Below the pieces are notes generated by a model, which saw only the letters and a program-made list of their open reading frames with translations, was not told the DNA's origin and ran no database searches. Position numbers and translations under genes: made by a program. 64,000 nt of DNA from Burkholderiales bacterium (GTDB lineage Bacteria > Pseudomonadota > Gammaproteobacteria > Burkholderiales > Ga0077523): the NCBI GenBank assembly GCA_965279325.1, contig OZ257154.1, positions 4,865,340 to 4,929,339 on the forward strand, in the 5' to 3' direction. Positions 42,211 to 62,274 of this stretch are shown here, piece by piece (the first letter of the stretch is position 1; each line of letters opens with the position of its first letter).

Positions 42211-42603
42211 TTGGCCGGGCACGAGCGACGTCGTTATTTCGTGAAAGCAGGAGAAGTCCCTGGATATCATCCCGCCAATCACACCGGCACGACCAACCAT
42301 CGGTTGATCGGCGCCGATACCGTCGGCGCGAGGCAGGTCGAGGTCATTCTCGGTGTCATCGAGAAGGGAAAAGGCGCGATGCCGCACGCCCATCCCGGCA
42401 TCGAGCAGGTCTGCTACCTGCTGGAGGGTGAAGCCCGCGCGGAAGTCGGTGGCGAGGCTTGCGACCTGAGCCCCGGCGATTGCTGCTTCTTTCCGGCCGA
42501 CGTGCCGCACAGCTTCACGGTGTTGAGCGACACACCGGTCAAGGTGCTCGTCATCTATTCGCCACCCTACGAAGAGCAACCGGATCGTGTGGTCCGGTAC
42601 TGA
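42211..42603 (+). CDS. Cupin-domain protein
   Basis: GAMPHAHPGIEQVCYLLEGEA...GDCCFFPADVPHSF are cupin motifs 1 and 2. TTG start with a GGGGGA Shine-Dalgarno. Confidence 0.7.
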   Translation: MAGHERRRYFVKAGEVPGYHPANHTGTTNHRLIGADTVGARQVEVILGVIEKGKGAMPHAHPGIEQVCYLLEGEARAEVGGEACDLSPGDCCFFPADVPHSFTVLSDTPVKVLVIYSPPYEEQPDRVVRY

Positions 42604-42619
42604 ATCGCGCGGATCGTCG

Positions 42620-43591: not shown

Positions 43592-43604
43592 CAAACACGC
43601 ATCC

Positions 43605-44801
43605 ATGGCAGGCCCTCTTTCCGGCATCAGGATCCTGGACCTCACGACCGTCGTGATGGGTCCTTTCGCCACGCAGATCCTCGCCGAACTCGGTGCGGAC
43701 GTGATCAAGGTCGAACCGCGCGAGGGCGACAACATGCGGTACGTCGGCCCCATGAAGTCCGCAGGCATGGGGCATCTTTACCTGCACTTGAATCGCGGCA
43801 AGCGCGATCTCGTGCTGGATCTGAAGCAGCCCGAGGGGCGCGAGGCGTTGTTGCGGCTCGCGAAGAGCGCAGACGTACTCATCTACAACGTGCGCCCGTC
43901 GGCCATGAAGCGGCTGGGGCTTTCCTACGACGACATTCGCGCGGTGAACCCGCGCATCATCTACGTGGGCGCTTATGGCTATTCCGAGCGCGGACCGAAC
44001 GCCGGCAAGGCCGCTTACGACGATCTGATCCAGGGCGGCACCGGCTTGCCCTGGCTCGCTTCGCGCAACGGTGCCTCCACGCCGCAGTACGCGCCCGTCA
44101 ACCTCGCCGACCGCGTCACGGGTCTGCACGTCACCTATGCCGTGACGGCCGCGCTGTTTCATCGCGAACGCACCGGCGAGGGACAATCCGTCGAGGTCCC
44201 GATGTACGAGAGCGTCGCGCAGTTCGTGCTCGGCGATCATCTGGCCGGACTGTCGTATCTGCCACCCATCGGTGGCACCGGCTACGCGCGTCTGCAGGAG
44301 CGCCGGCCCTACGCGACGAAGGACGGCTGGCTATGCGTGCTTGTCTACAACGACAAGCAGTGGGGCAAGTTTCTCCAGGCCGTTGGTCGCGCGGATCTGC
44401 TGGAGGACGAGCGCTTCACGTCCCACGGCAAGCGCGCTGAACACATCGCGGACATCTACGCGTTTCTCGCCGACCTGCTCAAGACCCGTACCAACGCGGA
44501 GTGGGTGACGTTGCTCGAAACGCTCGACATTCCCGTGGGGCCGATGCACACGGTCGCCGACCTGGTGACCGATCCCCATCTGGTACAGAGCGGCTTCTTC
44601 GAGACCGAGCAGCATCCGACCGAAGGCGAAGTGCTGGCGCCGCGAACACCCACGGACTGGTCGGCCTCGAAACCCGGTCCACGTCAGCCGGCACCAAGGT
44701 TGGGTGAGCACTCGGTGGAGATTCTCCGTGAAGCGGGGTATACGGATGCCGAGATCGCCGAACTCGCGCGCAAGCGGGTGACGCAGGTCATCGACCGGTA
44801 G
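43605..44801 (+). CDS. CaiB/BaiF family III CoA-transferase
   Basis: GPLSGIRILDLTTVVMGPFATQILAELGADVIKVEP, LNRGKR and an interlocked-dimer family III layout. Confidence 0.85.
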   Translation: MAGPLSGIRILDLTTVVMGPFATQILAELGADVIKVEPREGDNMRYVGPMKSAGMGHLYLHLNRGKRDLVLDLKQPEGREALLRLAKSADVLIYNVRPSAMKRLGLSYDDIRAVNPRIIYVGAYGYSERGPNAGKAAYDDLIQGGTGLPWLASRNGASTPQYAPVNLADRVTGLHVTYAVTAALFHRERTGEGQSVEVPMYESVAQFVLGDHLAGLSYLPPIGGTGYARLQERRPYATKDGWLCVLVYNDKQWGKFLQAVGRADLLEDERFTSHGKRAEHIADIYAFLADLLKTRTNAEWVTLLETLDIPVGPMHTVADLVTDPHLVQSGFFETEQHPTEGEVLAPRTPTDWSASKPGPRQPAPRLGEHSVEILREAGYTDAEIAELARKRVTQVIDR

Positions 44802-44807
44802 TCGGCA

Positions 44808-45974
44808 TTGGACTTCGCCTTCACTCCGGAACAACGCTCGATCCACGACGCGATCGTTCGTCTGTGCGAGCCGTTCGACGCACAGTACTGGCTCGAGCGC
44901 GATCGCAATGGCGGTTTCCCTGACGACTTTCACGCCGCGATCGCTCGCGATGGCTGGCTGGGCATCGCGATGCCCGAGGCGTACGGCGGTGCAGGCCTGG
45001 GCATCGCCGAAGCGGCGGTGATGATGCAGGCAGTGAGCGAATCGGGCGCCGGGTTCTCGGGCGCTTCCGCGATTCACATGAACATCTTCGGCCTGAATCC
45101 GGTCGTGGTGTTCGGCTCGGAGGAACAGAAGGCACGCTGGCTGCCGCCGCTGATACGCGGGGAGGAGAAGGCGTGCTTCGCCGTGACCGAACCGAACGTG
45201 GGTCTCAACACGACGCGCATCGAGACCATCGCGCGGCGCAATGGCGACCGGTACGTGCTGCAGGGGCGCAAGATCTGGATCTCGACCGCGCAGGTCGCCG
45301 AGCGGATGCTGATCCTCGCAAGGACGACGCCGTTGGCCGAGTGCCGGAAACCGACCGAAGGCCTGTCGCTGTTCTATACCCGGCTCGATCGTGATCGCGT
45401 GGAAGTGCGCGAGATCGAGAAGATGGGTCGCAAGGCGGTGGACTCCAACCTGCTGTTCATCGAGGATCTGTCGGTGCCGATGGAGGATCGCATCGGTGAA
45501 GAAGGCAAAGGCTTCGAATGCATCCTCCACGGCATGAACCCCGAGCGCATTCTCATCGCGGCCGAGGCCGTCGGGCTGGGCCGGGCCGCGCTGAAGCGCG
45601 CGGTCGACTATGCGAACGAGCGGATCGTGTTCGACCGCCCCATCGGCCAGAACCAGGCGATCCAGCATCCGCTCGCGGCCAGCTGGATGGAACTCGAGGC
45701 CGCGAATCTCATGGTGTTCAAGGCCGCATCGCTCTACGACGCAGGTCAGCCCTGCGGGGCGGAAGCGAATGCCGCCAAGTACCTCTCGGCCGAAGCGTGC
45801 TTCCGCACCTGCGAGCAGGCGATGCTCACGCTCGGGGGCATGGGCTACGCGAAGGAGTACCACGTGGAGCGCTACCTACGCGAAGCGATGGTCCCCCGAC
45901 TCGCGCCCGTGAGTCCGCACCTCATCCTGTGCTTCATCGCCGAGAAGGTGCTGGGACTGCCGAAGTCGTACTGA
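44808..45974 (+). CDS. Acyl-CoA dehydrogenase
   Basis: FTPEQRSIHDA, CFAVTEPNVGLNT, GRKIWISTA, GGMGYAKEYHVERYLREA. TTG start 6 nt after the CoA-transferase stop. Confidence 0.85.
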   Translation: MDFAFTPEQRSIHDAIVRLCEPFDAQYWLERDRNGGFPDDFHAAIARDGWLGIAMPEAYGGAGLGIAEAAVMMQAVSESGAGFSGASAIHMNIFGLNPVVVFGSEEQKARWLPPLIRGEEKACFAVTEPNVGLNTTRIETIARRNGDRYVLQGRKIWISTAQVAERMLILARTTPLAECRKPTEGLSLFYTRLDRDRVEVREIEKMGRKAVDSNLLFIEDLSVPMEDRIGEEGKGFECILHGMNPERILIAAEAVGLGRAALKRAVDYANERIVFDRPIGQNQAIQHPLAASWMELEAANLMVFKAASLYDAGQPCGAEANAAKYLSAEACFRTCEQAMLTLGGMGYAKEYHVERYLREAMVPRLAPVSPHLILCFIAEKVLGLPKSY

Positions 45975-46370: not shown

Positions 46371-47026
46371 GCCGGATCGAGGTGATCGTTCCAGAGGTCG
46401 ATCAGCACGCGGTCGGCGACCGGTGCCTCGGGACCGAACAGTTCCCGCGCAGCGAATCGCACGGAGTAAAGGTGCTGCGGCTTGTCGCCCAGTTTCGAGC
46501 CGCTCGCATCCGCGAAGATGAAGACGCCATGGACCCTTTCGATCACACCCTGGCGAGCGCGTGCGTAGCGCGGCAGACGCGTATGGCCGAGCGGATGATC
46601 GTTGCGGGTCACGATCGCGTCGCCGACGCGGAAGCGGGGCTCGATGTCGGCCTCCACGCGGAAGTTGCGGCCCGTCGCCGCGATCCTGTCGACGTCGTCC
46701 GGTGCCGGCACGCGCAGCGACGCCGGTGCCGCTCCCGCGGGTACCCCGGAGTCGATTTCCTCCCGCGTCGCGAGCCCGGCCTCGATCAGCAGCGTCTCCA
46801 GGCTGGCCAGCCAGCGTTCGTAGTAGGTCGAAGCGAGATAGTCGGCCGGATCCATGCGCTCCACGGCGTGGCGGCCGATGTCGATGTTCCAGCGGCCGAG
46901 CATGCTCGCGGCGAGGCGCATCGCGAATACGCGGCCTTCCCATGCGTGATGGAACACCGGCTCGTCACCCTCAGGCCCGACGGGTCCGAACCCGTGCATG
47001 CCGCCCATGTCGTGGACGCCGTTCAT
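46367..47026 (-). CDS. Nitrile hydratase beta subunit
   Basis: [16 protein letters not shown]...[15 protein letters not shown]...[10 protein letters not shown]...[20 protein letters not shown] overlap with the alpha subunit gene. Confidence 0.9.
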
Positions 47027-47670
47027 GGGTGGGTGCCTGCGCGGCCGGCGCGCGCCACGCCGATCATCGAATCGCGCGAGACCAGATCGGCGAGTGCATT
47101 CTCGTCCAGTCCTGCAGACCCTTCGGGGCGCTCCGGCAACACCAGATAGCGAATCTCGGCAGTGCTGTCCCAGACCCGCACCTCGACCTTCGGATCCAGC
47201 GTGAGCCCGAACTCCGCGAGGACGCCGCGCGGATCGATCACCGCCCTGGAGCGGTACGCATAGGATTTGTACCAGACGGGTGGCAGACCGAGCACGGGCC
47301 AGGGGTAGCACGAGCACAGCGTGCAGACCACGAGGTTGTGCACCTGCGGCGTGTTCTCCACGACCACCATGTGCTCCCCCTGAAGGCCGGTGTAGCCCAG
47401 TTCCGCGATGGCGGCGGTGGCGTCCTCGAACAGGCGGTGCCGGTAGGCGGGGTCGGTCCACGCACGCGCAACCACCCGGGCACCGTTGCGTGGCCCGATC
47501 CGCGTTTCGTAGGTCTCGACCAGCCGGTCCAGCGTGGCCGGGTCCACCAGGCCCTTGCGCACGAGCAGGGATTCCAGCGCCTTGACGCGCAGCTCCACGT
47601 CGGAGAAGCGCGAGCCCGCGTCGTGATCGTGATGATCATGAGGATGATCGTGGTGGTCTTGGTCGCTCAC
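47023..47670 (-). CDS. Nitrile hydratase alpha subunit, cobalt type, with a His/Asp-rich N-terminal tail
   Basis: The metal-binding claw [17 protein letters not shown] carries the Thr/Tyr variant typical of Co-type enzymes. The N-terminus is [17 protein letters not shown]. Confidence 0.9.
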
Positions 47671-51192: not shown

Positions 51193-52143
51193 TCAGGCAA
51201 CCGCCCGCCGTCGTAGCGGCGGCACATTCGGCGCGATGCGTTCCACCGCCGACGGCAGTGTCGTGAGGACGACCTCCGCCAGCCGCTTGATCGTCTTCTC
51301 GCGCGGATAGCGGTGCCGCCACGCGATGCCGATCACGCGATAAGGTACTGGTGCCTTGAAGGGACGGATCTGCACGAGCCCATCGCGTACCGAGCTCACG
51401 CCCGGCAGCGTCGCGAGCGCGGGCAGCAACGTACAGCCCACGCCCGCCGCCACCATCTGGCGCAGGGTTTCGAGGCTGGTGGCTTTCAGTTCCTCACGAT
51501 CGTGCGACGTCGTGGTGCCGCAGATCGCCAGCGCCTGATCCCGCATGCAGTGTCCTTCCTCGAGCAACAGCACGTTCTGGCCGGCCAGCTCGCCTTCCTC
51601 GATCTCCTGATTGTGTCCGAGCGGATGGCCTGCCGGCAGCGCCATGCAGAACGGCTCGCGAAACAGTTCGATGAATTCGAGGTCGTCTCCGTGAACCGGC
51701 AACGCGAGCAGCAGCGCATCGAGTCGGCCTTGACGCAACCGCTCCAGCAGATTGGCCGTGAGATCCTCGCGCAGGAACAGCCGCAACTTCGGATACGCCT
51801 CACGTATGGTCGGTATCAGGTGAGGTACGAGGTAGGGGCCGAGGGTGGGGATCACGCCCAGGCGCACGGCGCCGTCCATCGGATCGTCTCCCTGGCGCGC
51901 AAGTTGCCGGATCTGTTCCACCACGTCGAGCGCGATCCGCGCGCGTTCGATGATGTGTTCCCCGACCGGGGTCGGCAGCAGGTAGTGCTTGTTGCGTTCG
52001 AACAGCGTGACGCCGAGATAGTCCTCCAGCTTCTTGAGCTGCGTGCTTACGGTGGGTTGCCCCACGTGACAGGCCTCGGCGGCGCGGACGAAACGCCCCT
52101 GGTCCGCGACCGCAACGAGATAACGTAGCTCTTTCAACGTCAT
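51193..52143 (-). CDS. oxyR: LysR-family hydrogen-peroxide-responsive regulator OxyR
   Basis: MTLKELRYLVAVADQGRFVRAAEACHVGQPTVSTQLKKLE (HTH) and LLEEGHCMRDQALAIC, which carries the two redox Cys spaced as in OxyR C199/C208. Confidence 0.85.
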   Translation of the reverse strand: MTLKELRYLVAVADQGRFVRAAEACHVGQPTVSTQLKKLEDYLGVTLFERNKHYLLPTPVGEHIIERARIALDVVEQIRQLARQGDDPMDGAVRLGVIPTLGPYLVPHLIPTIREAYPKLRLFLREDLTANLLERLRQGRLDALLLALPVHGDDLEFIELFREPFCMALPAGHPLGHNQEIEEGELAGQNVLLLEEGHCMRDQALAICGTTTSHDREELKATSLETLRQMVAAGVGCTLLPALATLPGVSSVRDGLVQIRPFKAPVPYRVIGIAWRHRYPREKTIKRLAEVVLTTLPSAVERIAPNVPPLRRRAVA

Positions 52144-52381
52144 GGCTGTCTCCCCCACGTTTCGTGTGTTTTATCTCCGGTCGATTGCGGCTTACCCCAA
52201 GCCTCCCGACAACCCCTCGACCGAATCCTCCGGACGTCGTCCAGCGCGAGCCACCTCCGGTTCGGCCCCCGTGCGACGCCATCGGCAATCTACCCATTCC
52301 CCGCACATGAGGGAATAAGAAAACACGCCTCCATTGACGTTATCGATAGTAGATATCGAGTGCCGCGTTGATACATCCGTT

Positions 52382-52491: not shown

Positions 52492-53211
52492 ATGAAGCGC
52501 ACTCTGTCTGCAGCGAACTGTCTGTTTCTCGTCACTTCGTCGTTGCTGGGTGCATCTGCCCAAAGCTATGACGTCGTCACGGTCTCCGGCGGCGGTTCGA
52601 TCGAAGGCAAGGTCATCTACCAGGGTGCCGTGCCGATCAAGAAGATCATTCCGACCAAGGACAAGGAAGTGTGCGGCAGTGCGCGCGACGAGCCGCAGGT
52701 GCGCGTCGGTGGGGACAAGAGTGTCCAGGACGCCGTGGTCTATCTGAAGGAAGTGCCCAAGGGCAAGGCCTGGGGCAAGCAGGATGCGGCTCCGGTGCTG
52801 GATCAGGAGCACTGCCAGTTCCATCCCGCGGTGCAGGTGATCCGCGCCGGCCCCGTCGACGTGCTCAACTCCGATCCCGTGCTGCACAACACGCACGGTT
52901 TCTACGGCAAGCGCACGGCCTTCAATCTCGCGCTGCCCAACAAGGGCGTCAAGATAGCCGCGGATCTGCCCAGGCCGGGGCTGGTGCGAGTCGAATGCGA
53001 CGCGCACGGCTGGATGCTGGCTCACATCTACGTGGCGGACAGCCCCTACTACGCACTCACCGGCAAGGACGGCGGCTTCAGTCTGGCCGACGTGCCGCCC
53101 GGAGACTACACGCTGGTGGTGTCGCAGTACTTCCTCGGCGACCAGGAGATACCGGTGACGGTCAAGGGTGGTGAGACCGTCAAGCTCCCGGTCGAACTCA
53201 AGAAGAAATAG
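52492..53211 (+). CDS. Exported cupredoxin-like protein with a C-terminal CarboxypepD_reg-like beta-sandwich
   Basis: Signal peptide MKRTLSAANCLFLVTSSLLGASA. Candidate type-1 Cu ligands are H132/H135 (LHNTHG), C169, H172 and M175 (ECDAHGWM). C-terminus GFSLADVPPGDYTLVV. An AAGGGGAG Shine-Dalgarno lies upstream. Confidence 0.6.
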   Translation: MKRTLSAANCLFLVTSSLLGASAQSYDVVTVSGGGSIEGKVIYQGAVPIKKIIPTKDKEVCGSARDEPQVRVGGDKSVQDAVVYLKEVPKGKAWGKQDAAPVLDQEHCQFHPAVQVIRAGPVDVLNSDPVLHNTHGFYGKRTAFNLALPNKGVKIAADLPRPGLVRVECDAHGWMLAHIYVADSPYYALTGKDGGFSLADVPPGDYTLVVSQYFLGDQEIPVTVKGGETVKLPVELKKK

Positions 53212-53263
53212 TGCCGGCGGCGACCGGCGTAGCACCTACCGCAGCTCAAAGGAGGACATTCAG

Positions 53264-54388
53264 ATGAGCGAACGTGAACGGATGCGACGCGAGATGGACC
53301 GCATGCTGCGGCCGGCGGGAGAACATCCCGACGCCTGTACCTCGATCACCCGCAGGACTTTCCTGCACAAGTCGGCCGTGCTCGGCACCGGCGTGGCCGC
53401 GTGTGGCCTGTTCCCGAGCTTGAGCACCATCGATCTCGCCTTCGGCGCGGACGGACCGGCCTTCAAGTTCGCGTGGATTTCCGATACGCATCTCTATCCC
53501 AAGGAGCTGAATTCCCGCTTCGTGGAGAAGACGGTTCGTGCGGTGAAGGAAGTGCAGGCGATGAATCCGCCGGCCGATTTCCTCGTCTTCGGCGGCGACA
53601 TCGCCCAGCTCGGCGACCCGGTGGAGTTGCGCCTGGGGGCGGAGCTGCTGAAGGAGATCAAGATCAAGAAGGTCTACATCCCGGGCGAGCACGACTGGTA
53701 CCTGGACATGGGCGCGACCTGGAACAAGATGTTCGGCGCGTCGCCCTGGACGTTCGATCACAAGGGCGTGCGCTTCATCGGACTCGACACCGTCAGTCGC
53801 GCAGAGGATTTCTGGACATCGAGAAAGATGTCGCCGAAGGAGCGCATGGGCCACATGGCGACCCTCGACGGTACGCTGGGCGGCGCCTGGGCCGCGGTCG
53901 GTCCCGAGCAGCTCAAGTGGCTCAACAGCACGCTGGCGAGCTGGCCCAAGGACAAGCCGGTGATCATCTTCACCCACAACCCGCTGTGGGAGTACTACCC
54001 GCCGTGGAACTTCTGGGTGCGCGACTGGCGCGAGACGCAGGAGATCCTGAAGCCCTTCGCCAACGTCACCAACATCCATGGTCACGTGCACCAGCCGCTC
54101 TACAACGAGATCGGGAAAGTGCGCTCGATCGGGATGCTCGCGACCTCCTGGCCGTGGCCCTATGCGCCCGAAGGTGCTCCGCCTTTGACCAAGCCGATGA
54201 TCCGCGTCGACCCGGGTGATCATTTCGACGGCGTGGGCTGGGGCAAGTTGAGCATGTCGGGTGCGGCGAAGATCGACGGCGAATACATGATGTGGCGCAA
54301 GGAGGTGTTCGCTTCGGCGGACGTGGATTCCGGCACGGGCGACAACCGCAACCAGGTGCTGACCCCGCGGATCGCGGACCGTCCATGA
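53264..54388 (+). CDS. Tat-exported calcineurin-like metallophosphoesterase
   Basis: Twin-arginine motif TRRTFLHKSAVLG. Metallophosphoesterase motifs are ISDTH, FGGDI, PGEHDW (Glu where GNHD/E usually has Asn), FTHNP and GHVH. An AAGGAGG Shine-Dalgarno lies upstream. Confidence 0.75.
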   Translation: MSERERMRREMDRMLRPAGEHPDACTSITRRTFLHKSAVLGTGVAACGLFPSLSTIDLAFGADGPAFKFAWISDTHLYPKELNSRFVEKTVRAVKEVQAMNPPADFLVFGGDIAQLGDPVELRLGAELLKEIKIKKVYIPGEHDWYLDMGATWNKMFGASPWTFDHKGVRFIGLDTVSRAEDFWTSRKMSPKERMGHMATLDGTLGGAWAAVGPEQLKWLNSTLASWPKDKPVIIFTHNPLWEYYPPWNFWVRDWRETQEILKPFANVTNIHGHVHQPLYNEIGKVRSIGMLATSWPWPYAPEGAPPLTKPMIRVDPGDHFDGVGWGKLSMSGAAKIDGEYMMWRKEVFASADVDSGTGDNRNQVLTPRIADRP

Positions 54389-54426
54389 CGAAACGCAGCG
54401 CAACCAGGTCAAGAGGAGGGGACAAG

Positions 54427-54885
54427 ATGACTCGCAAATGGTTTCGCTATTCGCTCATCGCGGCAGGCATCGCGGCGTTGATCGTCGGCGGCGGCAGCGC
54501 GCACCTGGCGTTTGCCCACAAGGAGAAGCATTCGAGCGAACAGTTGCAGGCCTTCGAGGACGTGTTCATCGAACAGGTGAAGACCGGCGACCTGCTGTTC
54601 CATGGCGACGGAGCCACGGAGAAACGGCTCGGCGTGAAGCTCTCCAACACGGGAATGGCCTGTGCGATGTGCCATCCGTTCACGTCGGATACGCATCCGC
54701 ACGAGTTCCCGAAGTTCCAGGAACAGATGAACGAGTTCGCGGCGCTGCGCAACATGATCAACTGGTGCATCGAGAAGCCGAACGAGGGCGAGAAGATCGA
54801 TCCGGACGGCGAGGCGATGAAGGCGCTGGAAGCCTACATCTACTGGTCGAACCGCAACTCGAAGTTGGACCCCGGGCGGCACTGA
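54427..54885 (+). CDS. Membrane-anchored or exported monohaem cytochrome c
   Basis: N-terminal hydrophobic segment. Single CAMCH (C79, C82, H83) followed by FPKFQEQMNEFAALRNMINWCIEKP (C114). An AGAGGAGGGG Shine-Dalgarno lies upstream. Confidence 0.8.
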   Translation: MTRKWFRYSLIAAGIAALIVGGGSAHLAFAHKEKHSSEQLQAFEDVFIEQVKTGDLLFHGDGATEKRLGVKLSNTGMACAMCHPFTSDTHPHEFPKFQEQMNEFAALRNMINWCIEKPNEGEKIDPDGEAMKALEAYIYWSNRNSKLDPGRH

Positions 54886-54889
54886 TCCG

Positions 54890-54925
54890 TCGATTCCCTC
54901 CGTCGCTCAGGCGGTGGAGGGAATC
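54890..54925 (+). promoter_or_regulatory. Strong intercistronic stem-loop between the cytochrome c gene and ccoN
   Basis: CGATTCCCTCC-(14 nt)-GGAGGGAATCG, an 11-bp perfect stem starting 5 nt after the stop. No U tract follows. Confidence 0.5.
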
Positions 54926-55034
54926 GGTTGGTGACCGGGAGGATGCGTCCATGACCCGCTCGGCGTGCAGCCGGCGCGGTGGGGACGCTCGCACCAGACG
55001 ACGAACAGGAAATCGCCAGTGAGGAGCCCAGACG

Positions 55035-56471
55035 ATGGCCAGTGCAGGTGAAGCCCAAGCCGCGTTCCCGGATCTCGATTCGCTGATCGACCGGGAACTC
55101 ATCCTGAAGTGGCTGTACTGGGGTCTGTTCTGGCTGATGTTCACGCCCACGATCGGCGTGACCATCTCGACGCTGTTCAACTATCCCGACTATCTCGGCA
55201 GCTCGCCGTACCTCACGTTCGGGCGGTTGCGGCCGATGCACGTGAACGGCGTGATCTTCGGCGCCTTCTCCACCCTGTTCATCGGGCTGTGCTACTACCT
55301 GCTGCCGCGCCTGTGCGGCGTGCGCATCTGGAACGGTCACTGGGGGCACTGGCTGGTGTGGGTGTGGAACCTCGGGCTGGCCGCGGGGATGCTCTCGCTG
55401 TTCCTCGGCTACAACCAGGGCCTCGAGGCCGGCGAGTTTCCGCTGCCGATCGACGCGCTGATCTTCGTCGTGCTCACCATCGTCACGGTGCAGTTCCTCG
55501 TGACCATCGCCAGGCGCCGCGAGCCGCAGCTCTACGTGGCGCTGTGGTACCTCATCGGTGCCTTCGTCTGGACGGTGATCAACCTGATCCTGGGCAGCTT
55601 CATCCTTCCCTACTCGTTCACCGGGATCAACAGCGCGGCGTTCCACGGCCTGTTCATCCACTACATCGTCGGCCTGTGGATCACGCCGGCGGGTTACGTG
55701 CTGATCTACTACTTCCTCCCGGCCAGCGTCAGGAACCCCGTGTACAGCCACAAACTGTCCCTCGTCGGTTTCTGGTCGCTGGCTCTGTTCTATCCGTTCG
55801 TGGGCATCCACCACTACCTGTTCAGTCCCATCGCGGACTGGGCGGAGACGCTCGCGATCATCACCTCCATGCTGCTGATCGTGCCGGTGTGGACCGTGTT
55901 GCAGAACTTCTTCGGAACGATGATTGGCCGATGGCACACCTTCGGGACCAACCTGACGGCGAAGTTCATGATCATGGGCTCGCTCATGTACCTCGTCGGC
56001 TGCTTCCAGGGCTCGACCGAGGCATTGCGCTCGATCCAGGAACCCACCCACTTCAGCGATTTCGTCATCTCGCATTCGCACCTGACGGTGTTCGGCACCT
56101 TCGTCGTGTGGGCCATCGGCGGCACGGTCTACGTGATTCCCAAGCTGGCAGGCCGACCGTTGTGGTCGTTCAAGATGGGCAACTGGTCCTTCTGGCTCAT
56201 CACCTGCGGCATCTCGCTCATGGGACTGGATCTGACCATGGCGGGTCTGCAGCAGGGCTACATGCTGATGGCCGGCGCGGAGTGGCTCGACACGCTCGTG
56301 GCGATCAGGCCCTACTGGCTGATACGAACCGTCGCCGGCGCCAGCATGGACATCGGCATGTCGTTGCTGGTGATCAACCTGATGCGCACCGTGCTTTCCG
56401 CGTCCAGTGCGGCAGCGGCGGTCTCGCGACCTTCGCCCGGTAACGCTGCAACGCAGGGAGCGGCGTCATGA
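55035..56471 (+). CDS. ccoN: cbb3-type (C-family) haem-copper oxidase subunit I, divergent
   Basis: Twelve-helix protein colinear with CcoN. H69 (haem b), H209 (CuB), Y253 six residues before H259/H260 (cross-link Tyr and CuB), H347/H349 (b3 and b). The helix-VI signature reads FHGLFIHYIVGL. Confidence 0.85.
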   Translation: MASAGEAQAAFPDLDSLIDRELILKWLYWGLFWLMFTPTIGVTISTLFNYPDYLGSSPYLTFGRLRPMHVNGVIFGAFSTLFIGLCYYLLPRLCGVRIWNGHWGHWLVWVWNLGLAAGMLSLFLGYNQGLEAGEFPLPIDALIFVVLTIVTVQFLVTIARRREPQLYVALWYLIGAFVWTVINLILGSFILPYSFTGINSAAFHGLFIHYIVGLWITPAGYVLIYYFLPASVRNPVYSHKLSLVGFWSLALFYPFVGIHHYLFSPIADWAETLAIITSMLLIVPVWTVLQNFFGTMIGRWHTFGTNLTAKFMIMGSLMYLVGCFQGSTEALRSIQEPTHFSDFVISHSHLTVFGTFVVWAIGGTVYVIPKLAGRPLWSFKMGNWSFWLITCGISLMGLDLTMAGLQQGYMLMAGAEWLDTLVAIRPYWLIRTVAGASMDIGMSLLVINLMRTVLSASSAAAAVSRPSPGNAATQGAAS

Positions 56472-58186
56472 GCAGCAACCGATACGGTCTTCGTTTTTAC
56501 GCCCTGGTCGGCGGCTTCTTCTGCATCACGCTGGCCGCGTTCGTCCAGGGCGTTCTTCCCATGCTCGAGCCGCAGTCGCGCACGACCAAGGTCACGAAGG
56601 TCGTCCGCAACGACCTGGGCGAGCTGAAGTGGATGGAGCATCAGGCGAGCGACTACACGGCGCTCGAGCAGCGCGGCCGTCACGTCTACACGCGCGAAGG
56701 CTGCTGGTATTGCCACTCGCAGTACGTGCGGCCGGTGACGGGCGAGACGCGGCGCTGGGGGCCGGTGACGCAGGCGGGCGAGTACGCCTTCGACATGCCC
56801 CACCTGTTCTCCACGCGGCGCATCGGTCCCGACCTGTCGCGCGTCGGGCTCAAGTACAGCGATGCCTGGCACCTCGCGCACTTCTGGAATCCGCGCATGC
56901 TCTCGCCGGACTCGATCATGCCGCGCTTCCGGGCGCTGTTCGAAGGACCCTACCAGGCGAAGGTCGCGAAGGATGCGAGCGGCAACGTCACGCTGGAGCA
57001 GACACCGGCCACGCAGAAGCTGTTCGACTTCAAGAGCGACAAGCAGATCCTCCTCACGCCCAATGCCGACGGCCTGCTGTTCGTGCCGGAGCGCGGCCGG
57101 TATCCGGTCATCTTCACGCCGAACAAGGAATTCACCGGCGACACGGTGACCCTGGTGGCCGACAGCGAGGACCTGAAGGCGGTGATCGCCTATCTGCAGA
57201 AGCTCGGCACCAACCGGGGCAAGTGGCGTGATCGCTTCGAGCCGCAGTTGATGGAGGCGTCCCAGGTCACGGTACCGCGCTCGGAAGAATGGACCGCCTA
57301 CGGCAAGAATGTCTACGAGCGCCGCTGTCTCGGTTGCCACGGCGTGAACGGCGACGGCAACGGCCCGGCGGCCGCCTTCATGCAGCACGACCGGCCGCGC
57401 AATTTCAGCCTCGGCGTATTCAAGTTCCGGCTCACCCCTTCGGGCTCGCTGCCCGATGACGGCGACCTGCTGCGCACCATCACGCGCGGCGTGCGCGGCA
57501 CCTCGATGCCCACGTGGCACGAACTCCAGGAGAAGGACCGGCTCGCGGTGATCCAGTACATCAAGTATCACCTCGCTGCCGATCGCAGCGATGCGAGCAA
57601 GCCGTACCTGTATTTCGTGGAGGAGCCGGCGAAGGCACCGATCTTCATCGGCCAGCCGCCCAAGCCGTCGATGGAACTGGTGAAGCGCGGCCACGACGTA
57701 TGGAAGGACGCCAAGTGCTGGGAGTGCCATGGCGACGGCGGCAAGGGCGACGGCCAGAAAGCGGCGGGGCTCAAGGACGATCTCGGTTTCCCGATTCCGC
57801 CTGCCAATCTGACCACCGGGCAATTCAAGTCCGGCGCGAGCGTGAAGGACATCTTCCGCACCATGTCGACCGGATTGTCCGGGACGCCGATGCCCTCGTT
57901 CAGCGATTCACTGTCGGAGGCCGATCGATGGGCTCTGTCCTACTACGTGCTGTCGTTGTCGGCGTTTACCGATCCGCTGACCGGCGAGAAGATGCAGATC
58001 TCCGACAAGGATCGTGCGGCGCTCAACGATCCGGCCGTGACGGCAGCGGAGTCCCACTACGCCTACAAGTCGCAGACGGAGGTGCCGCCCACGCTGTTCG
58101 CGGGTGCGGCCTGGGCCCGCAAGCACGGCTTCGATTTTGCCGTGGCTCGGCCGTTGGCGGATGTCACGGATCCACGTCCAAGATAG
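56468..58186 (+). CDS. ccoO: CcoO (monohaem subunit II) fused to a C-terminal dihaem cytochrome c domain
   Basis: N-terminal TM segment, then GCWYCHSQYVRP...RRIGPDLSRVG...WHLAHFWNPR...SIMP...AVIAYLQKLG (CcoO). Two further CXXCH motifs follow (CLGCH 287-291, CWECH 417-421). 572 aa; ATGA overlap with ccoN. Confidence 0.85.
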   Translation: MSSNRYGLRFYALVGGFFCITLAAFVQGVLPMLEPQSRTTKVTKVVRNDLGELKWMEHQASDYTALEQRGRHVYTREGCWYCHSQYVRPVTGETRRWGPVTQAGEYAFDMPHLFSTRRIGPDLSRVGLKYSDAWHLAHFWNPRMLSPDSIMPRFRALFEGPYQAKVAKDASGNVTLEQTPATQKLFDFKSDKQILLTPNADGLLFVPERGRYPVIFTPNKEFTGDTVTLVADSEDLKAVIAYLQKLGTNRGKWRDRFEPQLMEASQVTVPRSEEWTAYGKNVYERRCLGCHGVNGDGNGPAAAFMQHDRPRNFSLGVFKFRLTPSGSLPDDGDLLRTITRGVRGTSMPTWHELQEKDRLAVIQYIKYHLAADRSDASKPYLYFVEEPAKAPIFIGQPPKPSMELVKRGHDVWKDAKCWECHGDGGKGDGQKAAGLKDDLGFPIPPANLTTGQFKSGASVKDIFRTMSTGLSGTPMPSFSDSLSEADRWALSYYVLSLSAFTDPLTGEKMQISDKDRAALNDPAVTAAESHYAYKSQTEVPPTLFAGAAWARKHGFDFAVARPLADVTDPRPR

Positions 58187-58195
58187 GGAGCAGCG

Positions 58196-58351
58196 ATGGC
58201 GGAACTCACCCTGATCCAGTTCTTCGTAGCCCTGTGCATGGGCCTGGGCGCGGTGTGCCTGTTCATCTGGGGCGTGCTGTCCGGTTCGTTCAACGATGTC
58301 GAGGCCATCAAGTTGAGAGCCTATCGCACGGAGGTCAACGAGGATGAGTGA
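58196..58351 (+). CDS. ccoS: CcoS/FixS-like cbb3 oxidase maturation protein (51 aa; not in the ORF track)
   Basis: Hand translation gives MAELTLIQFFVALCMGLGAVCLFIWGVLSGSFNDVEAIKLRAYRTEVNEDE. One TM helix followed by W..SG.F.D.E, as in CcoS. An AGGGAG Shine-Dalgarno lies upstream. Confidence 0.65.
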   Translation: MAELTLIQFFVALCMGLGAVCLFIWGVLSGSFNDVEAIKLRAYRTEVNEDE

Positions 58352-58553
58352 CGACACGCACCAGGCAGGGAGCCCTGGCCACGAGGACATTCCTCACCAT
58401 CAGCAGGTCGAGAGCTACGGCGGCGGAGACGTGCAGGCGCGCCACGGGCGCATCAACGGCTGGCTGCTCGTGGTCTACGCGATCATGTGGGTGTGGGCGC
58501 TCTACTACGGCATCACCTACTGGGGCGGGCTCGGGCCCGGGCTCGATTTCTAG
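58344..58553 (+). CDS. Small single-pass membrane protein (69 aa)
   Basis: His-rich N-terminus (HQAGSPGHEDIPHHQQ), then the TM helix INGWLLVVYAIMWVWALYYGITYW. The ATG overlaps the ccoS-like stop region. Confidence 0.5.
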   Translation: MSDDTHQAGSPGHEDIPHHQQVESYGGGDVQARHGRINGWLLVVYAIMWVWALYYGITYWGGLGPGLDF

Positions 58554-58574
58554 CCGGCGAGGAGGGCGAAGACG

Positions 58575-58682
58575 ATGGAAAACCACATGGGAGCCAAGGT
58601 CGTGCTGGCGATCGCGATCGTGAACCTGATCTTCCTGTTCAGCGAGCTGGCGCTCAACGTGTTCGGCGTGGCGTTGTCGTAG
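58575..58682 (+). CDS. Tiny hydrophobic ORF (35 aa; not in the ORF track)
   Basis: Hand translation gives MENHMGAKVVLAIAIVNLIFLFSELALNVFGVALS. A GAGGAGGG Shine-Dalgarno lies 6-8 nt upstream. Confidence 0.45.
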   Translation: MENHMGAKVVLAIAIVNLIFLFSELALNVFGVALS

Positions 58683-58707
58683 GAAGCGGCGTTCGAGAGG
58701 GGAAATC

Positions 58708-58800
58708 ATGACCACGTCTGAAAGCATCGCGTTCTGGATCTTCGTCGTCATGACGATGACGTTCTTCCTCTGGGTCTGCTACCTCGCGTTCAGGAAGTAG
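58708..58800 (+). CDS. Tiny hydrophobic ORF (30 aa), CcoQ-like in shape (not in the ORF track)
   Basis: Hand translation gives MTTSESIAFWIFVVMTMTFFLWVCYLAFRK. A GAGAGGGG Shine-Dalgarno lies upstream. Single TM helix ending in a W..Y..(R/K)K-like tail. Confidence 0.45.
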   Translation: MTTSESIAFWIFVVMTMTFFLWVCYLAFRK

Positions 58801-58828
58801 CGCGGCACCGGTACCCGGGAAGGCAAAC

Positions 58829-59575
58829 GTGCTCCAGTACCTGCTGGTGTTTCTCGCGGGCCTGGCGGGGAGCGTCCACTGTATCGGCATGTGCGGTGGC
58901 TTCGCCTGCGCGCTGGGCAGCGACCCGCGCGGCGCCGCCGCCAGTCTGCGCCGCCACCTGATCTACAACTTCGGCCGGGCCACGACCTACTGCTTCATCG
59001 GTGCGATCGTGGGATTCCTGGGATTGCTGCTGGTGGGTCACCAGGGCGAGAACACGACGGCGAGCCTGGCGCAACGTCTCCTGGCACTGATCTCCGGCCT
59101 GCTCATCATCTTCGTGGGCTTGCAGTTTCTCGGGGTTTCATTCGCGAGGCGGTGGCGGCTCGGCGACGCCGGCGCGCTGCGAATCACCAGCGCGCTATCC
59201 CGTTTGCTCAAAGCGCCCGGCAGCGGTGCGCCACTCGTGCTCGGCGTGCTCAATGGCTTCCTGCCCTGTCCGCTCGTGTACGCCTTTGCCGCGCAGGCGG
59301 CCGGCACGGGCGGCCCGCTGCCGGGTTTTCTCACCATGGCGGCGTTCAGCCTGGGGACCTTCCCCGCGATGCTCGCGATGGGTGGGGCGGGCCTCTGGAT
59401 GCGTTCCCGAAGCGCAACCGCCGTTTCCGTCCGTGCGCGAGGTGGCACCGTGTTGCTGCGGGCTGATCGTCGCCAACAGATCCTCCGCGTTGCCGGCGGT
59501 CTCATCATCGTGCTCGGCCTCGTCACGGTCGGTCGCGGCCTGATGCCCATGAGCGCCCATCTGCACGGGCCATGA
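58829..59575 (+). CDS. HCxxMCGG membrane protein (TauE/SafE- or DsbD_2-like), commonly linked to cbb3 or metal maturation
   Basis: GSVHCIGMCGGFACALG near the N-terminus, six hydrophobic helices, LNGFLPCPLVYAF. GTG start; ATGA overlap with the ATPase gene. Confidence 0.7.
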   Translation: MLQYLLVFLAGLAGSVHCIGMCGGFACALGSDPRGAAASLRRHLIYNFGRATTYCFIGAIVGFLGLLLVGHQGENTTASLAQRLLALISGLLIIFVGLQFLGVSFARRWRLGDAGALRITSALSRLLKAPGSGAPLVLGVLNGFLPCPLVYAFAAQAAGTGGPLPGFLTMAAFSLGTFPAMLAMGGAGLWMRSRSATAVSVRARGGTVLLRADRRQQILRVAGGLIIVLGLVTVGRGLMPMSAHLHGP

Positions 59576-61683
59576 GCGAAACCTGCAGCCATTGCCTGCT
59601 GCCGCTCGGTCGTCTGGCGCAACGCCGGGAGGTCAGCGGCGAGCCGTACCAGTTCTGCTGCTACGGCTGTTGCCTCGCCTACCAGGTGCACCACGGCGAA
59701 CGGGACGAGCCAGAAGCAGCGGCGCTGTTGATTCGACTGGGCGCGGGTGCGTTCCTGGCCATGAACATCATGCTGTTCAGCGTGCTGCTGTACTCCGGCA
59801 CTTTCGGTCCGGGTGACGGTCTGGCCGTTCGGATGGTGCATTGGCTGCTGTGGATCCTGGCCACTCCGCTGGTCGTCGTGCTGGGCGGTCCGTTCCTCGC
59901 TGGTGCGTGGCTGGCGGCCCGGCAGCGTCAGGTGGGCACCGACACCCTGGTCAGTGTTGCCGTACTGGCGGCCTATGGCTACTCGGCCTGGCAGGTCGTC
60001 TCCGGCGCCTCGGCGGTGTACTTCGATACCGTCACCATGGTGCTCGTCCTTTTCGTGCTCGGACGTTATCTGGAGGCGCGCGCGCGGGTGCAGGCTGCAC
60101 GCAGCCTCGCGCCGATGCTCGCAGCCGAACGCGCGCAGGTACGCGTGGTCGAGGACGGCGTCGAGACCCAGCGGCAGGTCACCGGTGTCCCGGCGGGTGC
60201 CGTGGTTCGCATCCTTCCCGGCGAGCGTATCCCCGTGGACGGCGTGGTGCTGGAGGGTCGTTCCGAGTGCGACGAAGCCATCCTCACGGGTCAGGCCGAG
60301 CGCGAGCCCAAGATGCCATCTGCGCGTGTCCACGCAGGCAGCATCAACGGGGCGGGGCAGTTGGTGGTGCGCGCTACGGTCGCAGGCTCGGCCACGCGCT
60401 GGATCCGGATCAGCCGGCAGGTGCAACAGGCGCTGGCGCGCAAATCGGCGCTCGGCAACGCGGTGGATCGCCTGGCGGCGACCTTTCTTCCGCTGGTGCT
60501 GCTGGTCGCGATCGGGACGGTGGCGTTCTGGAGCATGACAGTGCCCCTGGATCAGGCGCTGCTCATCGGGTTGGCGGTGCTGGTGGTCGCGTGTCCCTGT
60601 TCGCTCGGGCTGGCGGCGTCCCTGGCCACCACGCTGGCCATCGCGCAGGCAGCCCAGCGCGGCATCCTGGTGCGAGGCGGCGGCGTCCTGGAGCGACTGG
60701 CGCTAGTGCGGGCGGTCGCTTTCGACAAGACCGGGACCCTGACCCAGGGGCGACCGCAGGTGACCGCTGTTGCGCTCGATGCAGCGACCGAACGCGTGGC
60801 ACTGGCCCGTGCTTCAGCGCTGGCGATGACTTCCGATCACCCGCTGTCGAAAGCGATCGCCCGGTTCTGCCATGACAGTGGTGCAGACACGGTTCCCGCA
60901 TCGGGAGCAACGACACTCCCTGGTGCCGGTGTTGGCGGAACGGTGGACGGCGAGCCCCTGGTGCTGGGGTCCGCTGCGTTCATGGCCGCGCAAGGCCTGG
61001 AATTGCCCCGCGCATGGAGGACACCCGGCGACGGCACGGACACGCACGTATTCCTCGCGTGGGCCGGCAAGGTCCGTGCACGGTTCAGTCTCGCCGACCA
61101 GCCCATTCCCGAAGCGAGTGGCGTGACGGCGACCCTGGGCAAGCGTGGAATGCATCTGATCGTCCTGAGCGGCGATCGCGAGGCCGCGGTGGCGAGTACG
61201 GCGCGAGCGCTGGGCATTCCCGACTGGCGCTCGGGGCTCCTGCCCGAGGCGAAGGTGGCGGCCATCGCGGCACTGACCGAACATCATGGTCCCGTCGCGA
61301 TGGTGGGCGACGGGCTGAACGACGGCCCGGTGCTGGCCGCCGCATCGGTGGGTATCGCAGTAGGTGGCGCCGCCGACCTGGCGCGCGAGAGCGCGGACAT
61401 CGTCCTGCCGGAGCGGGCGCTCGAAAGTCTGCCCTGGGTGCTGGATCTGGCGGCGCGGGCGCGCCGATCCGTACTGGCCAACATCGCCTGGGCGCTCGGG
61501 TACAACTCGATCGCACTGACGCTGGCCGTTGCGGGGGTGTTGCAACCAGTCATCGCGGCAGCCCTCATGGCGGGTTCCAGCCTGCTGGTCGTAGCGAGGT
61601 CGTTGCGCTCCAATCGCGCCGGGGCCGATCGCTCCACTGCAGGCAATTCGCTCGGCATGGTTGCGGTGCCGGCGCGGCCCTGA
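59572..61683 (+). CDS. ccoI: Copper-translocating P1B-type ATPase, CcoI/FixI-like
   Basis: N-terminal Cys-rich domain CSHC...FCCYGCCLAY, TM CPC motif (VVACPCSLGLA), DKTGTLT, GDGLNDGP. Confidence 0.85.
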   Translation: MSETCSHCLLPLGRLAQRREVSGEPYQFCCYGCCLAYQVHHGERDEPEAAALLIRLGAGAFLAMNIMLFSVLLYSGTFGPGDGLAVRMVHWLLWILATPLVVVLGGPFLAGAWLAARQRQVGTDTLVSVAVLAAYGYSAWQVVSGASAVYFDTVTMVLVLFVLGRYLEARARVQAARSLAPMLAAERAQVRVVEDGVETQRQVTGVPAGAVVRILPGERIPVDGVVLEGRSECDEAILTGQAEREPKMPSARVHAGSINGAGQLVVRATVAGSATRWIRISRQVQQALARKSALGNAVDRLAATFLPLVLLVAIGTVAFWSMTVPLDQALLIGLAVLVVACPCSLGLAASLATTLAIAQAAQRGILVRGGGVLERLALVRAVAFDKTGTLTQGRPQVTAVALDAATERVALARASALAMTSDHPLSKAIARFCHDSGADTVPASGATTLPGAGVGGTVDGEPLVLGSAAFMAAQGLELPRAWRTPGDGTDTHVFLAWAGKVRARFSLADQPIPEASGVTATLGKRGMHLIVLSGDREAAVASTARALGIPDWRSGLLPEAKVAAIAALTEHHGPVAMVGDGLNDGPVLAAASVGIAVGGAADLARESADIVLPERALESLPWVLDLAARARRSVLANIAWALGYNSIALTLAVAGVLQPVIAAALMAGSSLLVVARSLRSNRAGADRSTAGNSLGMVAVPARP

Positions 61684-61686
61684 GCC

Positions 61687-62274
61687 ATGACAAGAAGCAG
61701 ATTCGCGGTGCTGGCCCTGCTGTTCTTCGGTCTGGTTTCGACCGTATCCGCCGACACACGCAGTCCACAGCGCGTGACGCGCGTCAACGGCGGCTGGCCG
61801 CTCGACGCCTTCAAGCTGGTTGACCAGAACGGCCGGAAGTTCACGCACGAGCAGCTTCGGGGGCAGTGGACCCTGGTGCTCATGGGCGATACCCGCTGCG
61901 GTGAACGCTGCGCGGCACCGTTGTCTGCGCTCACGGGCATGTACGAGCGGATCGCGCGCACGCAGAAGCTGCAGACCACGCAGGTGCTGTTCGTTTCCGT
62001 TGCCGGCGACTCGCCGGAGCAACTACGGCAATACCTCGCGCCGTTCGATCAGCACTTCCTCGGCGTTACCGGCACGCCGAAGACCCTGACGAAGCTGGCG
62101 GAAGACCTGGGGATCAGCGAATCGCTACCCGCTTCGCTCGTCCTGCCGAACGGCGACTACCCCGGCGTGCTGTCGGTGGTGGATCCCGAAGGTGTCGTGT
62201 GGGGCCAGTACCTGCCGCCGTTCGATGTAAAGCTCCTTACCGCCCGGTACTTGAAGACGCGCGTCGGACGGTAG
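61687..62274 (+). CDS. SCO1/SenC-family copper chaperone
   Basis: Signal/anchor MTRSRFAVLALLFFGLVS. Thioredoxin-like fold with the CxxxC motif TRCGERC. Starts 3 nt after the ATPase stop. Confidence 0.8.
   Translation: MTRSRFAVLALLFFGLVSTVSADTRSPQRVTRVNGGWPLDAFKLVDQNGRKFTHEQLRGQWTLVLMGDTRCGERCAAPLSALTGMYERIARTQKLQTTQVLFVSVAGDSPEQLRQYLAPFDQHFLGVTGTPKTLTKLAEDLGISESLPASLVLPNGDYPGVLSVVDPEGVVWGQYLPPFDVKLLTARYLKTRVGR

Follow-up and report, generated by a model that had tools for sequence, protein, structure and literature searches.

A SoxA/TsdA-family monohaem cytochrome c with a likely His/Cys-ligated haem, encoded next to a metallophosphoesterase in a cbb3-type oxidase operon

The 64,000-nucleotide stretch of Burkholderiales DNA analysed here (the window) encodes at 54427..54885 on the forward strand a small secreted c-type cytochrome with one haem-attachment motif. 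The haem of this protein is likely ligated by His83 and Cys114, since the protein matches the SoxA/TsdA family, its Cys114 aligns to the ligand cysteine of that family and is strongly conserved, and no other cysteine lies outside the CXXCH motif. As the best overall explanation, which we hold with moderate confidence, a Cys-ligated cytochrome of SoxA/TsdA fold would be the dedicated partner of the metallophosphoesterase encoded upstream of it, and would be wired to a cupredoxin and a cbb3-type oxidase. Cys-ligated c-type haems are rare, and the known cases are mostly found in dedicated sulfur enzymes (SoxAX, TsdA, DsrJ).

The cytochrome gene extends from an ATG at 54427 to a TGA at 54885, and GAGGAGG is located eight bases 5′ of the ATG. 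The following features were assigned to the gene, its product and its 3′ end:

54427..54885, + strand: secreted monohaem c-type cytochrome of the SoxA/TsdA domain family, 152 amino acids plus stop (open reading frame (ORF), Shine-Dalgarno sequence, Pfam PF21342, homologues)
54427..54516, + strand: predicted Sec signal peptide, residues 1-30 (hydrophobic core, A-F-A followed by HKEKH; putative cleavage site)
54661..54675, + strand: CAMCH haem-attachment motif, residues 79-83 (C79, C82; H83 as proximal ligand), present in 120/120 close homologues
54754..54756, + strand: codon of Met110 at Cys-4 (four residues before Cys114), the position of the catalytic Arg of TsdA/SoxA according to the alignment; possible alternative or redox-switch ligand
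54766..54768, + strand: codon TGC of Cys114, proposed distal haem ligand and reactive cysteine (TsdA/SoxA alignment, conservation)
54880..54882, + strand: codon of the C-terminal His152; the tail PG(R/K)H-COOH is near-invariant (conservation)
54880..54933, + strand: strong stem-loop directly 3′ of the cytochrome stop, starting at the last codon (RNA fold)

Two antisense ORFs (54409..54882 and 54447..54770) were rejected as high-GC shadow frames with no homology support. A script counted just three cysteines in the protein (79, 82 and 114), which leaves Cys114 as the sole cysteine outside CXXCH. It also confirmed what a preliminary description had read from the nucleotide letters, namely a single CAMCH motif with H83, C114 31 residues further on, M101 and M110, and found the peptide quoted there, HEFPKFQEQMNEFAALRNMINWCIEKPNEGEKIDPDGEAMKALEAYIYW, as written. 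At the N-terminus A..AHKekH is kept across 80 orthologues. After the predicted cleavage the mature protein would start with H-K-E-K-H (54517-54531), of which His 1 and His 5 are kept in the close family, and it ends with L-D-P-G-R-H-COOH (54865-54882). The HKEKH start and the terminal-His tail could be metal-binding or docking elements.

Residues 74-143 of the cytochrome match Pfam family PF21342 (SoxA/TsdA cytochrome c domain) with 35.5 bits at a gathering cut-off of 27, and all ten distant relatives that were scanned match as well, nine of them above the cut-off. At least 2478 homologues were found at E ≤ 0.001, and at least 6138 further proteins belong to a distant subfamily. When the family profile was compared to PDB sequences, SoxA of R. 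sulfidophilum (1H31) was the best match (residues 72-139, E = 0.0013), and SoxA of P. pantotrophus (2C1D) and TsdA of Allochromatium vinosum (4WQ7, E = 0.18) were also found. Each time Cys114 was aligned with a cysteine: 'MINWC' on 'MINAC' (position 114 of the 1H31 chain), on 'VNAC' and on 'IGDC' (TsdA Cys96). Residue by residue, Cys114 stands in the column of TsdA Cys96 and of the cysteine in the haem-1 domain of SoxA. SoxA haem 1 is reportedly His80/Cys114-ligated and non-catalytic, a description said to go back to work of Bamford et al. in 2002. For TsdA haem 1, His53 and Cys96 are the crystallographic ligands, and Cys96 is essential as judged from mutants (PMC6879331). The preliminary description had given the pattern FP.[FY]...L..RI..C....G......A..AY..W for such cytochromes and had suggested an alignment to TsdA and SoxA as a check. 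The pattern agrees with the alignment to TsdA 4WQ7 and SoxA 1H31/2C1D, and Cys114 indeed falls on the ligand column of TsdA (Cys96; PMC6879331) and on the haem-1 cysteine of SoxA.

Conservation of candidate ligands was determined in 120 close homologues, in 118 members of the distant subfamily and in 85 representatives at 50% identity that keep CXXCH. Cys114, which had been called conserved-looking, is the best-conserved candidate (120/120, 118/118 and 79/85), and five of the six exceptions diverge completely past a point, like frameshifted or truncated fragments. In the same order of sets, Met110 is kept in 120/120, 118/118 and 74/85 sequences, His59 in 120/120, 118/118 and 75/85, His90 in 120/120, 118/118 and 76/85, and the C-terminal His in 118/120, 118/118 and 38/85. 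Intact representatives with Gln, Lys, Ile or Phe in place of Met110, or with Asn or Gln in place of His90, retain the Trp-Cys pair. Met101 is kept in 107/120 close homologues, in 13/85 representatives and in none of the 118 distant sequences (Leu in 113); because of this Leu we exclude it as a haem ligand. When a periplasmic protein keeps a single cysteine without exception, that cysteine has to serve as ligand, take part in catalysis or form a disulfide with another molecule. The cytochromes of the distant subfamily end with ...YGKH and are extended at the N-terminus by 70-230 residues that contain a conserved (V/L)CDGxT(S/Y) cysteine motif (L084-L087, L088-L167; P0171, P0153); the extra cysteine of this extension might be a built-in carrier.

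The nearest matches of the predicted structure are in the same family, at weak E-values. A first AlphaFold model (full length, 38 close homologues) reached a predicted local distance difference test (pLDDT) score of 73.9, with 47-54 for the other four models, and its TsdA matches were insignificant (E ~0.9); in this model the signal region forms a lone helix (residues 2-28). For a second model the mature domain and 89 sequences from both subfamilies were used. It reached a pLDDT of 79.4 and a predicted TM score (pTM) of 0.76, the five models agree, and Cys114 is located within a confident helix (residues 107-116). The C-terminal tail has low pLDDT or is disordered in the monomer models. In a Foldseek search of the cytochrome model against the PDB the top nine matches were TsdA structures (probability 0.94-1.0, TM 0.55, E = 0.02-0.08), followed by three SoxA structures, and no other cytochrome class was among the PDB matches.

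TsdA (PDB 4WQ7, 4V2K) shares a Pfam family with the cytochrome and gives the best structural matches of its model. The CXXCHP motif, FP.[FY], the L..[RM]I..C helix and A..AY..W can all be aligned, with Cys114 on the distal ligand Cys96. However, TsdA is a dihaem protein of about 250 amino acids with a second, class-I electron-transfer domain, while the cytochrome of the window has one CXXCH and 152 amino acids. The Arg at Cys-4 (Arg119 of the precursor, Arg92 of the mature protein) is invariant in the catalytic domains of TsdA and SoxA, and Arg109 (mature Arg82) and Ser127 (Ser100) of TsdA also bind thiosulfate (PMC4423706). In the cytochrome, Arg82, Arg92 and Ser100 are replaced by Gln100, Met110 and Pro118, and its family adds the invariant His59 and His90, the C-terminal G(R/K)H and a metallophosphoesterase partner. 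The haem-1 (N-terminal) domain of SoxA, the best sequence match in the PDB, has Met at Cys-4 like the cytochrome ('MINAC' and 'MINWC'). The NCBIfam model for SoxA (TIGR04484) gave 28.8 bits at a cut-off of 110, and the match is confined to the N-terminal domain (model positions 18-95 of 212). Yet SoxA has two domains and works with SoxX, and neither SoxX nor a second SoxA domain is present here. Considering the single haem, the lack of a second domain, Met110 in place of the Arg at Cys-4 and the lack of sulfur genes nearby, we reject an assignment of the cytochrome as TsdA or SoxA. His/Cys-ligated c-type cytochromes also include DsrJ, PufC of R. sulfidophilum, NaxLS of anammox bacteria and PsbV2, which have the rare thiolate sixth ligand on a CXXCH haem in common with our proposal but differ in fold and context, and no sequence relationship to the cytochrome was detected. 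In PMC10861901, DsrJ and a triheme cytochrome of R. sulfidophilum are named in reference titles.

The gene upstream of the cytochrome gene encodes the putative partner:

53264..54388, + strand: metallophosphoesterase exported by twin-arginine translocation (Tat), 374 amino acids from ATG; the longest ORF starts from GTG at 53168 (Pfam Metallophos, TRRTFLH)

The protein matches Pfam Metallophos with 43.8 bits, and its twin-arginine motif TRRTFLH is conserved. The metal motifs SD.H, GGD, H.PL and HGH.H are invariant, and the five-motif set DxH, GD, GNH[DE], H, GHxH is present apart from motif III, which at residues 141-144 reads GEHD instead of GNH[D/E] in at least 97% of 181 sequences from both subfamilies. 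The motifs WNFW and WPWPYAP are likewise invariant in these sequences, and the C-terminal tail VDSGTGDN.NQ.L.PRIADR is kept in 80 close-family loci. The extra carboxylate of GEHD may alter which metal is bound or confer redox activity on the site. The database label of the protein, '3′,5′-cyclic-AMP phosphodiesterase', is implausible for a periplasmic metallophosphoesterase.

One genome per species was used for the comparison across relatives; 245 stretches encode a relative of the cytochrome, and the best 80 of the 245, all of the close family, were compared. They are derived from Beta- and Gammaproteobacteria (Thauera, Pseudothauera, Thiobacillus, Thiocapsa, Cupriavidus), Rokubacteria, Methylomirabilota, Nitrospirota, Deltaproteobacteria, Entotheonella and others. 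By tblastn the metallophosphoesterase gene was found upstream of the cytochrome gene in 78/80 loci and a cupredoxin-like gene in 72/80, in the same order, and several of the loci with no match run off the end of the contig. Most of the 80 loci have genes of a cbb3-type oxidase adjoining this three-gene module; these are arranged in three ways (downstream, upstream, or with a different subunit organisation), and a few close-family loci have no oxidase within 8 kb. The distant subfamily has about 40% identity to the close one and occurs in Binatota, Blastocatellia, Methylocella and soils. Its gene order is CCP/MauG dihaem peroxidase, metallophosphoesterase, cytochrome in 4/4 annotated contigs; in its metagenome loci the metallophosphoesterase is upstream in 55/56 cases and the CCP gene comes first in 42/42. 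Between the two subfamilies the metallophosphoesterases are orthologs (44% identity, E = 1e-102). By this orthology and the invariant pairing, metallophosphoesterase and cytochrome are the unit that is conserved, with the third protein as an interchangeable redox partner. One locus, from a metagenome-assembled genome of a manganese-oxidising Nitrospirota member, has a gene of the cytochrome P460 family after the cytochrome gene (L046:8528-9217; Pfam 37.2 bits).

A fourth gene is present in some of the relatives. In 28-30/80 close-family loci, including loci that lack an oxidase, a fused SoxY-SoxZ-like protein with Tat signal is encoded directly downstream of the cytochrome (L020:8480-9349; also L018, L022, L024, L028-L030, L033, L036, L038, L040, L045, L050, L053-L055, L057, L060, L062, L064, L066, L067, L071 and L073-L075). 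The protein scores above the Pfam thresholds for SoxY (56.6 bits) and SoxZ (50.1 bits). At the end of the SoxY match is a GGC arm, kept in 27/28 carriers. Its SoxY-like domain also passes Pfam Desulfoferrodoxin (44.7 bits), and a complete His4Cys set of the superoxide-reductase type is found in 18/28. Its domain matches suggest that a sulfur carrier and an iron centre of the superoxide-reductase type are combined in one protein.

In the window the cytochrome gene is the third gene of a ten-gene operon extending from 52492 to 62274. Besides the metallophosphoesterase and cytochrome genes the operon contains the following genes, and a regulator gene is divergently transcribed:

51193..52158, − strand: OxyR-like LysR regulator, divergently transcribed, with redox cysteines GHCMRDQALAIC (NCBIfam OxyR 278.6 bits, cut-off 329)
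52492..53211, + strand: secreted 239-amino-acid protein with an amicyanin-like cupredoxin domain (about residues 100-181) and a CarboxypepD_reg immunoglobulin (Ig)-like domain (Pfam, family profile)
55035..56471, + strand: CcoN-like catalytic subunit of a C-family (cbb3-type) haem-copper oxidase (Pfam COX1 244 bits; NCBIfam ccoN 235, cut-off 583)
56468..58186, + strand: fused CcoO-CcoP-like trihaem subunit, 572 amino acids, three haem motifs (FixO and two cytochrome c domains)
58196..58351, + strand: FixS/CcoS (domain scan)
58344..58553, + strand: 69-amino-acid membrane ORF, sequence GRINGWLLVVYAIMWVWALYYGITYW, resembling the N-terminal FixP helix (no Pfam match)
58829..59575, + strand: DsbD_2 (domain scan)
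59572..61683, + strand: P-type ATPase (Cu-ATPase), named from the Cupriavidus counterpart and 31-72% tblastn matches
61687..62274, + strand: Sco1/SenC (domain scan)

By its gene content this is a self-contained cbb3-type oxidase operon; it looks like a divergent subtype, as the NCBIfam scores for ccoN and ccoO are under the equivalog cut-offs. The order of the maturation genes is the same in Cupriavidus and Pseudothauera, and the counterpart of the 69-amino-acid ORF in locus L061 matches FixP_N. OxyR is by far the best match of the regulator, which has both redox cysteines and is syntenic solely in loci of Burkholderiales and Rhodocyclales. In the 239-amino-acid protein the candidate ligands H132, H135, C169, H172 and M175 (C-x2-H-x2-M) are invariant. 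Its profile weakly matches the blue-copper domain 5fc9, amicyanin, CuA and the cupredoxin of nitrite reductase (E = 0.004-0.3). It resembles amicyanin and other type-1 blue copper proteins in the C-x2-H-x2-M motif with an upstream His, and the profile covers amicyanin residues 20-104. Unlike amicyanin, it has two conserved Cys in an additional N-terminal region, and a C-terminal CarboxypepD_reg Ig-like domain. A gap of 149 nt separates the cytochrome gene from ccoN. The stem-loop at 54880-54933 has a 16-bp GC-rich stem (−35 kcal/mol, z = −2.9, 0/200 shuffles equally stable) and no U-tract, and could be a transcript-stabilising or attenuating element between the three-gene module and the oxidase genes. 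Further upstream are genes unrelated to the operon, for a nitrile hydratase alpha subunit (47023-47670, − strand, Pfam 302.7 bits) and, at 42587-45974, for a TctC receptor, a family III CoA-transferase and an acyl-CoA dehydrogenase.

In the mechanism that we propose, His83 would bind the haem iron on the proximal side and, at least when the iron is ferric, the Cys114 thiolate would bind it on the distal side. The cytochrome would act as dedicated haem subunit or partner of the two-metal protein with metallophosphoesterase fold, and would be neither a free electron carrier nor a thiosulfate dehydrogenase. A small, probably anionic substrate would react at the site formed by metallophosphoesterase and Cys-haem; the cysteine would leave the iron and join covalent chemistry as in TsdA and SoxA, and the hydrolase-fold partner would resolve the adduct in a role like that of SoxB. 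Electrons would then pass to the cupredoxin, next to the CcoO/P-CcoN oxidase and finally to O2. The data establish the family, the placement of Cys114 on solved Cys ligands, the conservation and the constant gene pairing, whereas Cys114 ligation, complex formation, the direction of electron flow and the substrate are what we infer here. The C-terminal His tail, which is disordered in the models yet invariant, is a candidate for the contact to the metallophosphoesterase. A peroxidase in the place of cupredoxin and oxidase is in line with a dehydrogenase, which would deliver electrons to O2 or H2O2.

Sox-like chemistry is our leading guess for the pair, since a Cys-haem cytochrome of the SoxA family, a hydrolase of the metallophosphoesterase superfamily and a SoxYZ-like carrier recall the Sox pathway. 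SoxB belongs to the metallophosphoesterase superfamily. The likeness to the Sox system thus comprises the SoxA-family cytochrome together with a Tat-exported two-metal enzyme of that superfamily, and, in the 28-30/80 related loci, the carrier with its GGC arm, of which the window has none. On the other hand the metallophosphoesterase is CpdA/GpdQ-like with GEHD and not SoxB-like, the third position is taken by a cupredoxin or a CCP/MauG protein, the module is tied to cbb3 operons and not to sox clusters, and the SoxY-like domain of the related loci bears ligands of the superoxide-reductase type. Tentatively, the pair may be an unrecognised periplasmic oxidoreductase, a two-protein 'mini-Sox' that combines SoxA-like oxidative conjugation with SoxB-like hydrolysis on a sulfur species or an oxyanion such as phosphite. 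It would pass electrons via the blue-copper protein to the cbb3 oxidase, or to CCP/MauG in the distant subfamily, and would use the fused SoxYZ-like carrier wherever this is present. We regard this fuller scheme as possible but would not bet on it. The preliminary description had held that a His/Cys haem would support a sulfur-type substrate of the upstream module. The carrier gene in the related loci favours such a substrate, but it is not established for the window, where Met110 replaces the Arg at Cys-4, sox and dsr genes are absent and the surrounding operon is of the cbb3 type.

Several observations weigh against our explanation. With regard to the haem, the loop of residues 71-100 has a pLDDT of just 54-66, which might be expected for a model built without cofactor; the PDB matches are weak by E-value (0.0013-0.18 for sequence, 0.02 for Foldseek); and Met110, His59, His90 and the C-terminal His nearly equal Cys114 in conservation. 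With regard to a Sox-like function, the known thiosulfate pocket is absent because the catalytic Arg is Met and the second Arg is Gln. The window has no SoxX, no SoxY-SoxZ-like gene and no sox or dsr genes, and its flanks (MipA, nitrile hydratase, acyl-CoA dehydrogenase, CoA transferase, TctC) contain no sulfur genes. An assignment of the metallophosphoesterase as SoxB was rejected, as it gave no match to a SoxB model and resembles just CpdA/GpdQ-type enzymes. Moreover, several features of the context speak for peroxide or oxygen radicals and not for sulfur, namely the OxyR-like regulator, CCP/MauG, the superoxide-reductase-like ligands and nearby rubrerythrin-like and AhpC genes.

The near-equal conservation of other residues leads to two different views of the haem. 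It could be ligated by His83 and Met110, or change its ligand on reduction, with Cys114 bound to ferric and Met110 to ferrous iron; in either case Cys114 would be a reactive or sensing residue and not the permanent sixth ligand. All sequences compared from the two large subfamilies have Met110 (120/120, 118/118). It precedes Cys114 by four residues in the same modelled helix (107-116), and it should line the distal pocket, since it has the position of the TsdA Arg that touches the substrate beside the ligand sulfur. A redox-linked ligand change also has a precedent in TsdA haem 2, from Lys208 to Met209 (PMC6879331). Nevertheless, Gln, Lys, Ile or Phe replaces Met110 in intact representatives that still have the cysteine. 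The haem-1 domain of R. sulfidophilum SoxA also has Met at Cys-4 (QMINAC), and Cys is reportedly the ligand there. This makes Met110 as ligand rather unlikely in our view. A bis-His haem with His59, His90 or His152, with Cys114 just as catalytic or intermolecular disulfide cysteine, is less probable still. In its favour, both large subfamilies keep His59 and His90 without exception and nearly always end in His (118/120 and 118/118), and no role has been assigned to these residues. But none of the three falls on the family's ligand column, some intact representatives have Asn or Gln in place of His90, which aligns with Ala or Met in TsdA/SoxA, and the C-terminal tail is modelled as disordered and is missing from some representatives. 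Of the preliminary proposal, Cys114 as distal ligand is backed by family, alignment, conservation and the TsdA/SoxA fold matches, although ligation is deduced and Met110, His59, His90 and the C-terminal His come close; among the alternatives it had named, Met101 falls away and Met110 stays, being almost as conserved as Cys114. Least credible of all is a genuine TsdA-type thiosulfate dehydrogenase or tetrathionate reductase. JGI labels many homologues of the cytochrome 'thiosulfate dehydrogenase', and TsdA gives the best fold matches. However, one haem in 152 amino acids stands against two in about 250, the electron-transfer domain is lacking, the TsdA E-value is 0.18, and the Arg at Cys-4, the second Arg and the Ser at Cys+4 are replaced by Met, Gln and Pro. 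We consider the JGI label unsupported because of the single haem, the replaced substrate residues and the SoxA N-terminal domain as closest relative.

Two other functions have to be weighed for the module as a whole. The three proteins could serve periplasmic defence against reactive oxygen species (ROS), or repair, on the oxidase: electrons flowing into the pair would reduce peroxide or superoxide, and the Cys-haem would be a redox sensor or switch. The divergent OxyR-like regulator with both redox cysteines suggests this, as do the CCP/MauG peroxidase of the distant subfamily, the rubrerythrin-like and AhpC neighbours in some lineages (Binatota), the Desulfoferrodoxin match with its His4Cys set (18/28) in the SoxY-like domain of related loci, and the Asn-to-Glu exchange that adds a carboxylate to the metal site of the metallophosphoesterase. 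Yet we know of no peroxide or superoxide enzyme with metallophosphoesterase fold or SoxA-type haem; the OxyR link is limited to one clade, and the near-invariant GGC arm (27/28) is a feature of SoxY carriers. On balance we find a ROS function doubtful, though it deserves attention. A function of the three proteins as assembly or copper-delivery factors of the cbb3 oxidase, with no substrate of their own, would agree with the first gene encoding a copper-site protein, with the position of the module between ccoS and the ATPase/DsbD_2 genes in loci of the Nitrospirota and Deltaproteobacteria type, and with the lack of recognisable CcoG, CcoH and PCuAC genes in the operon of the window. It is unlikely, as the pair occurs with no oxidase nearby in the close-family loci L050, L055, L066, L067 and L074, and no oxidase was found in any distant-subfamily locus examined.

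If the Cys-ligated cytochrome is indeed the dedicated partner of the metallophosphoesterase, the two proteins seem to make up a periplasmic redox enzyme not described before. Neither the cytochrome subfamily nor the metallophosphoesterase-cytochrome module was found described in a literature search; the papers on Paraburkholderia and Thioalkalivibrio that it returned deal with unrelated metallophosphoesterases. The family would add thousands of members (at least 2478 and at least 6138) to the Cys-ligated c-type haems. It spans Beta- and Gammaproteobacteria, Rokubacteria, Methylomirabilota, Nitrospirota (including the genome of a manganese oxidiser), Binatota, Acidobacteria and others, and the matches are mostly from soil metagenomes. 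For database annotation, our data contradict the label 'thiosulfate dehydrogenase' and make that of a cyclic-AMP phosphodiesterase implausible. An enzyme composed of metallophosphoesterase and cytochrome, if real, would be further from known systems than the cytochrome alone, and the invariant pairing suggests that a two-metal hydrolase scaffold was recruited into respiratory electron transfer. Since the operon is present in the cultured and genetically tractable Cupriavidus, Pseudothauera and Thiocapsa, the role of the module is open to direct experiment, and so is the source that feeds this divergent cbb3 oxidase.

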